DNA from: Octopus vulgaris
Taxonomy: Eukaryota
NCBI GenBank assembly: GCA_951406725.2
Contig: OX597815.1
Coordinates: 21,700,001 to 21,764,000 of the forward strand
Length of the DNA: 64,000 nt
Direction of reading: 5' to 3'
The notes under the pieces were generated by a model. That model was not told where the DNA came from, searched no databases, and saw nothing but the letters and a program-made list of their open reading frames with translations. The position numbers and the translations under genes are program-made. Shown here piece after piece: positions 556 through 51,933 of the stretch. Positions within the stretch are counted from its first letter, which is position 1; the number at the start of each line of letters is the position of its first letter.

Positions 556-1131
556 TCAAATTAATAATAAAAGGGTAAAATTAATTAATTAAATTAATTA
601 AGTAATCAATCAATTAATTAATAATTTTACCAAGTAGCTCGGTACGTTAAAACAATCTTAAGTAAAATTATATAAATATTCTATAATTATAAACACAATT
701 GTTTGTATTATAGTGCATTGTTGTACCATTCAAAACTTTTTATTCATTACAATCATAATTATAATTAGAGGTCAGCTAATTGCTTCACCACATACCGAAT
801 TTAGAAATAGGAGTTAAAAATTCCTTTTCTACTACTGTAAGAATCTCCTCGATAGAAACACACTTTTTTACGTAGGCAAAGAAAAGAACATTGAATCAAC
901 ACGACTCCGATTAGCCACAGACGCGTTTCGAGATTAAAGTGCTTTAAAATTACTTACTTCTCTCCTCAGTGTTGATTCATTGTTTTTCTCTTTGCCTACG
1001 TAAAAAAGTGTGTTACTGTCGTGGAGATTCTTACAGTAGTAGAAAAGGAATTTTTAACTCCTATTTCTAAATTCGGTATGTGGTGAAGCAATTAGCTGAC
1101 CCCTAATTATAATTAAGTTTATAATTATAGA

Positions 1132-1134
<3 letters not shown>
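556..1134 (-). mobile_element. Non-coding fold-back element (Penelope pLTR / retrozyme-like) with a hammerhead ribozyme in the loop
   Basis: Arms of about 147 bp (756-902 and 969-1115) are near-perfect reverse complements and the loop holds a hammerhead. It is flanked by (TA)n and (CA)n. The start (AATAATAAAAGGGTAAAATTAATT...TTTTACCAAGTAG) and arm motif (CACCACATACCGAATTTAGAAATAG) are shared with the element at 50230. Confidence 0.8.
915..974 (-). ncRNA. Type I hammerhead ribozyme, intact core
   Basis: Minus strand reads CAACA-CUGAGGA-GAGA...UCUC-GAAA-CGCG-UC-UGUGG. This gives the CUGANGA/GAAA core, stem II GAGA/UCUC, palindromic minimal stem III, a GUC triplet and stem I ACA/UGU. Confidence 0.85.
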
Positions 1135-3000: not shown

Positions 3001-3639
3001 ATGATGAATTTGCATTACTTTGCTGTTGTGCTATCACACGCTTTCGAAACTCCGAGGAGGTATTTACAAAAAATCGAAAACAGGAATGCTGAGACTGAAA
3101 AATTAAATTTACTTGCATTAACAACGCTGACGATTTACGATCGCTCTAAAATATCAACTTTGACACAGGTGGTTTTGGCTTGATCATCAACCTAGAAAAA
3201 ATGGTTGTAATGTTTCAATTTGTACAAAATAATGGAAATCTGGACACTGAAATACACCTGCGAATTCAAAGGGCAACACATAAATAACAACACAAAATTT
3301 ACAAATCGTGTCAATAGAAAAAATGGTTTAGAAATGACCAATTTGTATTTTAAATTAAACGGTATTTAAAAAAATTCCATAAACAACAACACTTTGCTCT
3401 TTGCTGCAATCATTCAATTTAAATTATTCTGCATGAGATGTCTGGTCATATATAGCGGATGAACGCACATTCAAACAGCCGTTTCCGAGCTTGCAGAGGA
3501 AAACATTAAACCTAAAGAATTTATCGTATAAGAACTAAATGAAGACATGGTCTAAAGGCATAGAAACCTTGGGATCGAGCCGGATGGCAAACAAAAGTGT
3601 GATGTGTCATTTGGGAGACCAAAAATGGTATTTACATAA

Positions 3640-4812
3640 AATATCGAACAACAGGGAATGTTTTTTACCTGACCAGACTGAAATTCAAAACAGGTTTTTA
3701 CTTCACGCATTAGGGAACTCTTATACGCTGACGATTGTGACCTAGTGATAATCAATCGCTCTAAAACGGGCCTGCAATCTCTTGTAGCTGCATTTGACAC
3801 AGCTTGTGATAATTTTGGCTTGATCATCAACCTAGAAAAAATGGTTGTAATGTTTCAATTTGTACAAAATAATGGAAATCTGGACACTGAAATACACCTG
3901 CGAATTCAAAGGGCAACACATAAATAACAACACAAAATTGGCTCTTTACAAATCGTTTGTCTTACCATTCTTGTTGTATTCTTCTAGAACATGGACGTGT
4001 TATGAAAGACATTTCAAATTGTTAGAACGATTCGACCAAAAATGTCTTTGCCTCATTTTAAACATTAAACGGTATTTTAAAAAAATTCCAGGCCCAGATG
4101 TCTTTGCGTCTGCAGGCATCACTTCAATTGAATAAATTATTCTGAAAAACCAAATGAGATGGTCTGGTCATATACTTCGAATAGCGGATGAACGCACATT
4201 CAAACAGCCGTTTCATGGCGAGCTTGCAGAGGAAAAACGCAATCGGGTTAAACCTAAAAAGAGGTTTAAGGACGGTATAAGAACTACCATGAAGACACTT
4301 GGAATGGATCTAAAGGCCATAGAAACCTTTGCTCCGGATCGAGCCGGATGGCAAACAAAAGTGTGGGATGGTGTGAAAGCATTTGAGGAGACCAGGATAA
4401 CACATGCAAGACTCTAGAGCGATTAAAGAAGAATGCTGCGATCGAGAAGGCGAATCTCAGTGACCTTTTTGTGTGCACAGTTTGTGACAGACCATGCCTT
4501 TCTTTTGCTGGGCTCAAATCTCATTTGAGAACCCATGAAAAACGAACCTCCACCAACTATTCTCCCTATATATCTCTACACACCTTTCAATACCGTGTAT
4601 GCCATAAAGTTTGAAATTCTAACGAAGGCGTCAAAAGACATTTTAAGATCCACAAAGATCAGAATTTAACTGCAGCTCTTAGTGGTTCAAATCGAATGTG
4701 CAATCTATGTGGATGTCTCTTCAATACATTGTCTTGTTTAAAAAGCCACATCAGACGACACGATGGATCTAAAGTACAGGAGGTGGTCAGACTCTGCATA
4801 AAGAGTAGACAA

Positions 4813-26389: not shown

Positions 26390-26393
<4 letters not shown>

Positions 26394-26637
26394 TCAGCAA
26401 TAATTTAGATTCAAATGAATATGGTACTTAATTTAGATGCACCAGAATTCTGTATGGAGTGATTATAATCAAAATAAGCAACAATAATGACTCCGGTAAT
26501 GGAAAACCTCTATAATTGGCTGATGAGTGCTCAGCATTTTAAACTGTTGTAATACTTACAACATTTAATAAAATGATGTAGTACGAAACGATCGTACCAA
26601 ATTACCGGAGTCATTCTTGTTGCTTATTTTGATTATA
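26390..26637 (+). mobile_element. Non-coding hairpin element with a hammerhead in the loop (family 2), inserted in (TA)n
   Basis: Arms of about 37 bp (26464-26500 and 26601-26637) enclose the ribozyme. The leader GAATATGGTACTTAATTTAGATGCACCAGAATT is shared with the 51604 element. Confidence 0.8.
26516..26600 (+). ncRNA. Type I hammerhead ribozyme, canonical core
   Basis: UUGG-CUGAUGA-GUGCU...AGUAC-GAAA-CGAUCG-UA-CCAA. Stem I is UUGG/CCAA, stem II is extended (CAUUUUA/UAAAAUG, UGUUGUAA/UUACAACA), stem III is palindromic and the triplet is GUA. Confidence 0.9.
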
Positions 26638-49461: not shown

Positions 49462-50160
49462 TGGTTGTCTACTCCTTATGCAGAGTTTGACTATCTCCTA
49501 TACCTACACCTTAGCACCATAATGGCATCTGATGTGGCTTTTTAAACCAGACAATGTTCTGAAAAGACACCCACAAAGATTGCACCTCTGATTTGGACCA
49601 CCAAGAGCTGCAGATAAGTTCTGCTCTTTGTGGATCTTAAAATGTCTTTTGTGGCCTCCGTTGGATTTGCAAACCTTCTGGCATACACTGCATTCAAAGG
49701 TGTGCACAGACATACAGGCAGAATAGTTGGTGGAGGTTTGTTTTCCATGCGTTCGTAGATGAGATTTGAGGTCAGCAAAAGACAGGCATCGTCTGTCACA
49801 GACTGTGCACACAAAAAGGTCATTATCATTCACCTTCTCGATCGTTACATTCTTCCTTAGATCTCTTTTGAGTCTTACTTGCGTTATCCTGGCGTCTTCA
49901 AATGTTTTCACTCTACTCCATACCTTTGTTCGCCATCCAACTCGATCCGAAGCAAGCGTTTCTATATCTTCTGGAATCATTCCAAGTGACTTCATTGTAG
50001 TCCTTATGCTGTCCTTAAACCTTTCTTTAGGTTTACGCCGATAGCGTTTCCCCTCTGCAAGCTTACCATAAAACAGTTGTTTCGGCATGCGAACAATATG
50101 GTCATACTATCTCAATTGGTTCCTCAAAATCATAGCTTTAATTGAGGTGATGCCTTCAGT
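49462..50160 (-). mobile_element. RTE LINE 3' fragment with an open C-terminal ORF carrying three C2H2 zinc fingers
   Basis: ORF 49504-50088: MPKQLFYGKLAEGKR...KERFKDSIRTTMK, then CTVC..HLRTH, CSVC..HFKIH and CNLC..HIRCH. Same family as 3640-4815. Confidence 0.92.
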
Positions 50161-50167
50161 TTCTTCA

Positions 50168-50233
<66 letters not shown>

Positions 50234-50521
50234 TCAATAATAAAGGGTGAAATTAATTAATTAATTTAGAAATAATCATTAATTTCACCAAGTAGAGTTC
50301 GGCATGTAAAAGACCCATTCAAGGAAGGTTTAAGTAATACTAAGTAATTAAGGGTTCAGCAACGATTTGCCTCACCACACACCGAATTTAGAAATAGCAG
50401 TCAAAACGTTTTGGCTAATCTTTCTACTTAAAGGGAGATCCCAGCAAAAACAAAGCACTTAAAAAACAAACAACGCAGGCAAAAGAGAAAGAAATGACGA
50501 AAATCATTCTATATTAAGTTA

Positions 50522-50611
50522 CCTACGGACGCACGTTTCGGAATTAAGTCATAGCAGAGCATAAAAAATAAATAATATGTCTTCCCTGACTATTTTCCTC
50601 CTCAGCGTAGG
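50522..50611 (-). ncRNA. Type I hammerhead ribozyme, intact core
   Basis: Minus strand CCUACG-CUGAGGA-GGAA...UUCC-GAAA-CGUGCG-UC-CGUAGG: 6-bp stem I, long stem II, GUC triplet. Confidence 0.92.
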
Positions 50612-50715
50612 ACTCTTCAATTATAAATAATTGCGTCTAAATTATTAATAATTGTGCATTAAATTTAATACACAATTATTAATAATTGAGACGCAATTAT
50701 TTATAATTGAAGAGT

Positions 50716-50805
50716 CCTACGCCGAGGAAGAAAATAGTCAGGTAAGACATATTATTTATTTTTTATGCTTTGCTATGACTTAATTCCGAAACGTGCGTCC
50801 GTAGG
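50716..50805 (+). ncRNA. Mirror-copy hammerhead with core mutations (probably inactive)
   Basis: CCUACG-CCGAGGA-AGAA...UUCC-GAAA-CGUGCG-UC-CGUAGG. U4 is changed to C and G10.1 to A relative to the minus-strand copy. Confidence 0.8.
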
Positions 50806-51002
50806 TAACTTAATACAGAATGATTTTCGTCATTTCTTTCTCTTTTGCCTGCGTTGTTTGTTTTTTAAGTGCTTTGGTTTTGCTGGGATCTCCCTTTTAA
50901 GTAGAAAGAATAGCCAAAACTTTTTGACTGCTATTTCTAAATTCGGTGTGTGGTGAGGCAAATCGTTGCTGAACCCTTAATTACTTAGTATATATATATA
51001 TA

Positions 51003-51400: not shown

Positions 51401-51603
51401 TTGAATGTATGTATGTATGTATGTATGTATGTATGTATGTATGTATGTATGTACGTACGTACGTACGTACGTATGTATGTATGTATGTATGTATGTATGT
51501 ATGTATGTATATGTATATGTGTGTGCGTGTGGGTGTGTGAGCGCATGTGTGTGTATATATACAAGCGCACACGCACATATGTATATATATATATATATAT
51601 ATA

Positions 51604-51885
51604 CAGCAAAAAACAATTAAGATTCAAGTGCATTCCAATGAATTCAAAAGAATATGGTACTTAACTTAGATGCACCAGAATTGTTTATGGTATTAACCAT
51701 AAAAATGTGGGGTGATTATAACCAAGAAAAAAAGCAACAAGAATGGATTAGTAGTTTAGTACAATTGTTTCATACCAAGAACCATTTTATTTAATTTTAT
51801 TTTAAATAAAATGGTTCTTGGTATGAAACAATTGTACTAAACTACTAATCCATTCTTGTTGCTTTTTTCTTGTTTTTTTTCTTGG

Positions 51886-51890
<5 letters not shown>
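51604..51890. mobile_element. Palindromised member of family 2 retaining only the 3' half of the hammerhead
   Basis: The leader is homologous to 26390. The hairpin 51717-51890 has GAAA-CAATTG-TA-CTAA (51825-51840) and its reverse complement, with no CTGATGA. Confidence 0.8.

Positions 51891-51933
<43 letters not shown>

Follow-up and report, generated by a model that had tools for sequence, protein, structure and literature searches.

A half-hammerhead palindrome in Octopus vulgaris, read from its sequence as two truncated 3' ends of a Hydra-clade PLE joined head to head in a TA repeat

Hydra-clade Penelope-like elements (PLEs; Craig et al. 2021, PMC8557442, section 11) are characterized by RWK and DKT motifs, a CxCX5C linker, CxxC and CxH motifs and a C-terminal endonuclease. 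In the same paper an inverted 5'-truncated copy with a one-sided tail is drawn as typical of PLEs (Fig. 2 legend). For Penelope of Adineta vaga (Arkhipova et al. 2013, PMC3846280), inverted ends, a one-sided tail and junction palindromes were described and self-priming was proposed. The protein of the Poseidon element PAc of Anolis (Frangieh et al. 2024, PMC11167929) is a predicted dimer, the tail is bounded by two internal RNA starts, and ribozyme cleavage was not needed in vitro. The formation of PLE inverted ends and tails is treated as an unsettled question in PMC8557442 and PMC11167929. Hammerheads with a palindromic helix III, and pairs of them on opposite strands at distances of 100-700 bp, were described in PMC4209133, and retrozymes have been argued to be non-autonomous PLE derivatives (bioRxiv 10.64898/2026.07.22.740005). 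No genome-wide map of breakpoints in inverted PLE copies was found in our literature search, which mostly had subscription articles and older Penelope papers outside its scope.

The sequence under study occupies positions 51604-51890 of a 64,000-nucleotide stretch of Octopus vulgaris DNA (assembly GCA_951406725.2, contig OX597815.1, 21,700,001 to 21,764,000, forward strand), called the window from here on. Its features are collected in Table 1. The first-pass annotation described it as a palindrome that holds the GAAA half of a hammerhead and lacks the CUGAUGA half, and this description was borne out. Positions 51719-51888 form a fold-back (MFE -134.7 kcal/mol, z -18.8, with none of 200 shuffles equally stable) in which the arms at 51731-51794 and 51802-51865 mirror each other at 64/64 core bases. 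The right arm retains GAAA-CAATTG-TA. CUGANGA, including CUGAUGA, is absent from both strands of 51604-51890, and thus no type I hammerhead with both core halves is present there. An Rfam scan of the window returned 0 matches at the gathering score. The copy sits between two (TA)n runs, and with (TA)n on both flanks a unique TSD is not readable.

Positions within the element are counted from its short 3' end, set as 0. On this scale the copy at 51604 runs antisense from about +115 to -74, continues through 6 filler bases and then runs in sense from -75 to 0. In its own subfamily CUGAUGA lies at -118 to -112, the apical stem II hairpin at -92 to -76 (loop -85 to -83) and GAAA at -51, with the predicted cut after -40. 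Both arms end at about -75, immediately 3' of the apical hairpin, which is entirely missing, and the turn is therefore not at the tip of stem II, where it had been placed at first. Since both arms ended short of CUGAUGA at -118, the 5' half of the ribozyme is missing from both, and most likely it was never copied rather than overwritten. The sense arm has an 11-12-nt tandem duplication near 51873-51884 that the other arm does not have. The copy is almost certainly a PLE insertion product. By its sequence it is read as a palindrome of two truncated 3' ends of a Hydra-clade PLE placed head to head in a TA repeat, and it is predicted to be inert debris.

Table 1. Coordinates of the 51604 copy and of related insertions in the window. 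Negative numbers are element positions; a dot marks a feature without strand.
Feature	Position	Strand	Basis or remarks
(TA)n target, left side	51582-51603	.	Sequence; tail end adjoins (TA)3 in 69/72 and 89/96 sampled copies
Tail, ~115 nt (the 'leader' of the first-pass annotation), on the antisense arm only	51604-51718	-	Alignment to real copies; extent equals the pLTR part from the short 3' end to a point ~55-60 nt before the ORF start
Antisense arm, element 3' end, 0 to ~-74	51719-51794	-	Mirrored GAAA half as TTTC at 51768-51771
Junction filler, 6 nt	51795-51800	.	Sequence; repeats neighbouring antisense T-rich bases; 17-nt apical hairpin and all 5' of it missing
Sense arm, element 3' end, -75 to 0	51801-51888	+	5'-truncated, without tail
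3' half of type I hammerhead	51825-51841	+	Matches intact subfamily ribozyme (L291, 12 identical records)
Parts of the half-hammerhead		+	GAAA 51825-28; palindromic stem III CAATTG 51829-34; predicted cut after 51836; stem I 3' strand 51837-41
(TA)n target, right side	51887-51929	.	Sequence; overlaps the element's TTA end
Sister-subfamily insertion, same layout	26390-26637	.	Tail and 34-nt antisense arm 26391-26500; sense arm from -135 at 26501-26637
Whole hammerhead in the 26390 copy			CTGATGA 26520-26; GAAA 26585-88; CGATCG 26589-94
Retrozyme-like insertion, ~600-nt tandem non-coding hammerhead unit	50228-50991		~110-nt one-sided tail, head-to-head arms, (TA)n target
Insertion of a family related to 50230 (76% in tail)	556-1134		Tail-bearing arm ~70 nt longer

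DNA searches of the 2.8-Gb assembly gave 1999 and 1862 first-look candidates for the 51604 and 26390 copies, respectively, and 40 of each were scored. The best relatives of the 51604 copy among its 40 are 96-97% identical to it over its first 187-191 nt and then run on into the reverse complement of a whole hammerhead. The left part of the 51604 copy is therefore the antisense 3' end of the element. The homology to 26390-26637 noticed at first stands, at 92% over 49 nt of the left-end 'leader' and 75% over about 70 nt of the arm. Judged by these sequences, the 26390 copy is a member of a sister subfamily and not the parent of the 51604 copy. Its inner ends lie at -34 and -135, and its long 'arms' are a 34-nt inverted duplication and not stem I. 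Nor is the 'leader' a 5' leader: it is the reverse complement of the sequence between the element's short 3' end and its ORF start. Full-length copies have the same sequence in sense orientation, after the short 3' end and ahead of the ATG, and both its end points are TA-like. Of six full-length stretches examined, five read through from it into ATG GAA/GAG AAA and one ends in (TA)n. A 27-letter pattern from it has at least 1000 exact matches in the genome; the reversed control has 0.

Stem III of the 51604 copy is palindromic CAATTG, as annotated, but the change from CGATCG that had been proposed did not hold. The fetched loci contain 187 distinct matches to the hammerhead pattern, other families and some chance matches included. 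Stem III is palindromic in 147 of them; CAATTG is commonest (85), and CGATCG occurs in 37. CAATTG is thus a subfamily trait. Because the parent subfamily owns an intact hammerhead with CAATTG, stem III is unchanged in the 51604 copy. Stem I is TTTAG/CTAAA in one subfamily and ATTGG/CCAAA in the other, and the base of stem II and stem III also covary between them. The pLTR hammerhead of the parent has the CUGANGA and GAAA cores, the NUH site and the three stems with covariation of a type I hammerhead, and it is predicted to cleave. Hammerheads of the family at L291:2085-2179 and L175:4839-4932 have a stem II of about 60 nt with a 7-8-bp apical hairpin, and they were missed by Rfam.

The coding parent was reached through L054, a relative of the 51604 copy that carried ORF sequence. 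A search with it led to 20 fetched stretches of 9.5-9.9 kb. An intact ORF (MEK to stop, about 957 aa) is present in 5 of these 20 loci, with a pLTR before and after it, in a unit of 4.2-4.7 kb. The pLTR repeats are direct in L082, L085, L088, L089, L092, L096 and L098 and inverted in L083, L084, L090, L093 and L097. B-type ends lead straight into ORF remnants in L054, L193, L203 and L210. The ORF encodes an RT with FD and YRDD motifs and a C-terminal endonuclease with YIG. The translated protein P0001 is without an N-terminal endonuclease and has RWK in RIRWKT and DKT in ADKTG. Read by eye, it has the CxCX5C linker CKCRIKSKC, the CxxC CQLC and the CxH CVH, around conserved E and N, and no CCHH. 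Its core RT blocks fit, also by eye, the part of the Hydra alignment printed in PMC8557442. A Pfam search and a PDB phmmer search of the ORF each gave 0 matches; the Atlas look-alikes of the protein are RVT_1/HTH_animal clusters at 0.94-0.97, which serve as a lead.

The (TA)n target and the canonical hammerhead are further traits of the Hydra clade found here. Its tendency toward units below 3 kb, which is a tendency and not a rule in the text of PMC8557442, is not followed by a unit of 4.2-4.7 kb. The inverted 5'-truncated copy with a one-sided tail, a trait of EN+ PLEs, was found in 97 of 168 tail-bearing copies, the 51604 copy included. By motifs, domain order, target and hammerhead the parent is classed as a Hydra-clade C-terminal EN+ PLE. 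Other clades were considered. Naiad (N-terminal endonuclease, DKA, no canonical hammerhead) is ruled out by the C-terminal endonuclease, DKT and the hammerhead, and Neptune/Nematis (CX2-5CxxC linker, CCHH endonuclease) by the CxCX5C linker. The five intact ORFs (L089:2501-5443, L091, L092:3874-6750, L095 and L097) are of Hydra type and near-identical, which suggests recent activity of the element. In L095 two ORFs face each other head to head. Four runs that are presumably RNA gave contigs spanning the L092 pLTR up to 8342; strand, ends and cleavage are not readable from contigs.

In layout, with inverted truncated ends, tail and junction palindrome, the 51604 copy has traits already published for PLEs in PMC3846280 and PMC8557442. 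The octopus element shares RWK, DKT, CxCX5C, the CxxC/CxH endonuclease, (TA)n and a type I hammerhead in the 3' repeat with the Hydra-clade elements (for example, Hydra-1_Obim and Penelope-13_HM). Penelope-13_HM also resembles it in carrying a 5'-truncated inverted copy at the 5' end and a hammerhead on each strand. The octopus unit differs in its length of 4.2-4.7 kb and its ORF of about 957 aa with Asn-rich inserts, whereas the Hydra families listed in PMC8557442 are below about 3 kb. Its stem II spans about 60 nt, whereas that of the Hydra hammerheads tabulated in PMC8557442 (File S2) spans about 12-25 nt, and its tail is 96-119 nt, compared with a usually quoted 30-40 nt. Adineta vaga Penelope, as described in PMC3846280, has head-to-head inverted ends, a one-sided tail, junction palindromes and Asn-rich ORF inserts, which the two inserts found here resemble. 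However, it belongs to the Penelope clade, has few copies and has readable TSDs, while at least 1000 tail copies lie here in (TA)n and the TSD is unreadable. The PAc element is similar in that two RT starts bound the tail, both strands are cut and extended and a hammerhead lies upstream of the starts; its starts, however, fall within the ORF and lack homology to the target, whereas those here precede the ATG and are TA-like (PMC11167929). Non-LTR retrozymes share the type I hammerhead with palindromic stem III, and the 50230 family of the window is, like them, a tandem non-coding unit of about 600 nt. Unlike them (bioRxiv 10.64898/2026.07.22.740005; PMC4209133), the 51604 family has a coding parent and is not a tandem non-coding unit.

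The breakpoints were mapped in two samples of tail-bearing copies. Sample A was drawn from the first 100 of at least 1000 matches to the 'leader' pattern (75 A-type, minus 3 duplicates, leaving 72), and sample B from the first 100 of 119 matches (minus 4 tandem duplicates, leaving 96). Both arms are present in 36/72 copies of A and 61/96 of B, which are lower bounds; the remaining copies are single-arm or longer than the 1.35 kb of sequence examined. The arms were placed by jumping alignment, and 95 two-arm junctions were mapped after 2 spurious ones were dropped and 10 were set by hand, with insertions longer than about 1.3 kb under-counted. The short end is followed by TATA in 32/36 and 58/61 two-arm copies of A and B, respectively, and the inner ends of the 95 spread from +24 to -974. 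The half-ribozyme palindrome, with GAAA kept and CUGAUGA missing on both arms, is not a singleton and occurs in 16 of the 95. As a sequence feature the 51604 copy, being one of these 16 stubs, has little importance. It carries a caution, namely that long 'stem I arms' and 'half ribozymes' in the genome are insertion scars.

The map of breakpoints relative to stem-loops, which the first-pass annotation had proposed, did not favour hairpin tips. Of 37 near-symmetric junctions centred between -118 and -15, 4 are centred in the apical hairpin and 7 at stem III, where a uniform spread would give 6.3 and 3.5, respectively. Among 71 ends in sample B, 5 lie inside the apical hairpin (10.0 expected) and 5 at the hairpin foot (4.7 expected). 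Sample B also has 14 ends at GAAA/stem III compared with 7.0 expected (p 0.009), an excess that is post hoc, concerns one of three intervals tried and one subfamily, counts paired ends twice and is set against a uniform background. Clustering just downstream of the predicted cut site was inconsistent (16 versus 5 ends in A, 15 versus 19 in B). The two inner ends of a copy are coupled: they lie no more than 15 nt apart in 46/95 junctions, compared with 10.3 +/- 2.8 in 20,000 permutations (maximum 24), which suggests that both arms were copied from one RNA. Overall, the tailless arm is the longer one in 65 junctions and the shorter one in 29; among the unambiguous near-symmetric cases the counts are 29 and 10 (p 0.003). 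Coupled arm ends narrow the models for the formation of PLE inverted ends and tails.

Filler is present in 37 of the 85 automatically placed joins. Of the 48 direct joins, 11 have no overlap and 23 have at least 2 common bases. With nearest-sibling references, overlaps of at least 3 nt were found in 14/83 joins (5.8 expected) and in 9/44 near-symmetric ones (3.0 expected), and filler was found in 49 joins, which is an overestimate owing to mismatches and to short arms that were anchored wrongly. The weak GAAA/stem III excess and the 2-3-fold excess of short overlaps may reflect a small contribution of local self-complementarity. The arms of one copy differ by 2.5-5.5%, about 3% on average, and private unshared changes outnumber shared ones in all four classes. 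Thus, the arms formed together and then drifted; later homogenisation by conversion was not seen among them. L286 and L338, on different contigs, have one junction in common with a 5-8-nt overlap near GAAA, so that either the same join arose more than once or a single palindromic copy was mobilised. L160/L161 (G000:C1:127918152-127918489) has a tail on both arms and turns at -127. L118-L122 (G000:C13:65417867-65449292) is one insertion present five times in a tandem duplication of about 7.8 kb.

Any account of these insertions starts from the observed layout, the parent family with its ORF, two fixed outer ends and inner ends that are variable and coupled. The two outer ends resemble target-primed starts on opposite strands. 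On the evidence of genomic copies, we consider it probable that both target strands primed on one element RNA and that the short cDNAs were then end-joined. The GIY-YIG endonuclease would nick both strands of (TA)n. Site 0 would serve as the start for one 3'-OH, and the end of the tail (+96 to +119) for the second; the element is TA-like at each of these sites. Both RTs would halt near the same place, the later-starting one tending to halt first, and the cDNA ends would be joined blunt, via a few common bases or with filler, before repair fills in. In the 51604 copy both RTs would have halted at about -75. Dual priming is favoured because the PLE protein of PMC11167929 cuts and extends both strands and has two internal starts. 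Several observations count against it. The tail-bearing arm is longer in 29/95 copies, a result that dual priming accommodates only with trimming or with two RNAs. Overlaps of at least 3 nt occur at 2-3 times chance, the longer tailless arm is predicted by snap-back too, and the start site used in vitro by PAc (Poseidon) lacks the likeness to its target that the TA-like ends of the octopus element have. A more specific form can be offered only tentatively, at somewhat less than even chances. The stubs, which number in the thousands, may record a PLE reaction in which an RT-endonuclease dimer primes both strands on one RNA from two TA-like starts about 100-115 nt apart, the trailing RT stopping at or before the leading one. 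If true, a single step would account for the tail, the inversion and the junction palindrome, and no antisense templates would be needed. Intact ORFs of about 957 aa and a simple (TA)n target make the dual-priming reading directly testable.

The same insertion could instead have involved snap-back self-priming, in which the site-0 cDNA folds, copies itself back and switches to a tail-bearing template (a second cDNA or antisense RNA). This was proposed for PLE junction palindromes in PMC3846280. It accounts for the coupled ends, the longer tailless arm and the excess of overlaps of at least 3 nt, and some turns do fall on hairpins or palindromes (the stem II tip in L034, stem III in L326, L340, and the common 5-8-nt overlap of L286/L338). 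However, most junctions have no priming stem, 35 of 44 near-symmetric ones having an overlap below 3 nt or filler (a noisy estimate), and 48/95 are far from symmetric. The zero-loop palindromes L162, L173, L278 and L340 leave no hairpin loop unless trimmed later, and self-copying alone is unable to add the tail. Snap-back is thus a possible but rather unlikely origin. Of the broader claim made at first, that template switching recurs at hairpin tips, fold-back junctions in two independent hammerhead families that arise in copying were confirmed, and the clustering at tips was not.

Two further readings were considered. According to the first of these, made in the first-pass annotation, a 26390-type hairpin element was inserted complete, a template switch at the stem II tip later overwrote its CUGAUGA half, and the half-ribozyme could be cleaved in trans. 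The homology with 26390, the ending of both arms at the foot of the apical hairpin and the B-sample excess at GAAA/stem III are in its favour, the last being weak for the reasons given above. Yet the 51604 copy belongs to another subfamily (96-97% versus 75%) and has the layout of an insertion product, neither tip-centred turns nor hairpin-foot ends are enriched, and the arms were not homogenised after insertion. Since pairing of the GAAA half with its mirror is complete (probability 1.0), cleavage in trans is unlikely, and the cofolding model likewise disfavours it: the predicted gain from adding the 26512-26555 piece is 0.0 kcal/mol for the two-arm sequence and 1.7 kcal/mol when only the right arm is present. 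Overwriting is accordingly very improbable, and the scatter of breakpoints along the element already largely refutes it on the terms first set for it. We give equally little credence to a palindromic unit that multiplies as such (a MITE or foldback DNA transposon) or to a fold-back artefact of sequencing or assembly. The inverted repeats are perfect, look terminal and lie in TA, and the junction is read from assembly sequence. Nevertheless, junctions vary from copy to copy with one pair (L286/L338) shared among 61 B junctions, the tail is one-sided, and the ends lead into an RT ORF; the arms differ by the percentage given above, and in the 51604 copy only one arm carries the duplication.

The insertions at 556 and 50230 belong to another hammerhead family with the same layout as the 51604 copy, and neither turns inside stem II of its ribozyme. 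For 50228-50991 there were 3069 first-look candidates, and one base is changed in the core of its right arm. Its turn lies on a 6-nt palindrome, with the ribozyme about 58 nt further downstream. A repeat unit of 593-601 nt was found in 6 of 25 loci of the 50230 family, and tblastn with P0001 found no ORF for the family in the 25 loci of +/-1.5 kb. With its PLE footprint, the insertion at 50228-50991 would support the mobilisation of retrozymes by PLEs, and a non-coding retrozyme-like unit of about 600 nt with the same footprint is a second substrate for testing the dual-priming reading. In 556-1134 a whole hammerhead (core at 969, minus strand) lies between the arms without a stem I partner of its own. 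Elsewhere in the window, a 200-aa frame at 49504-50106 (minus strand) may correspond to the C terminus of a LINE ORF that includes C2H2-type fingers. Degraded, presumably RT-like sequence occurs near 3127 and 3728, within about 3100-3800 on the plus strand.
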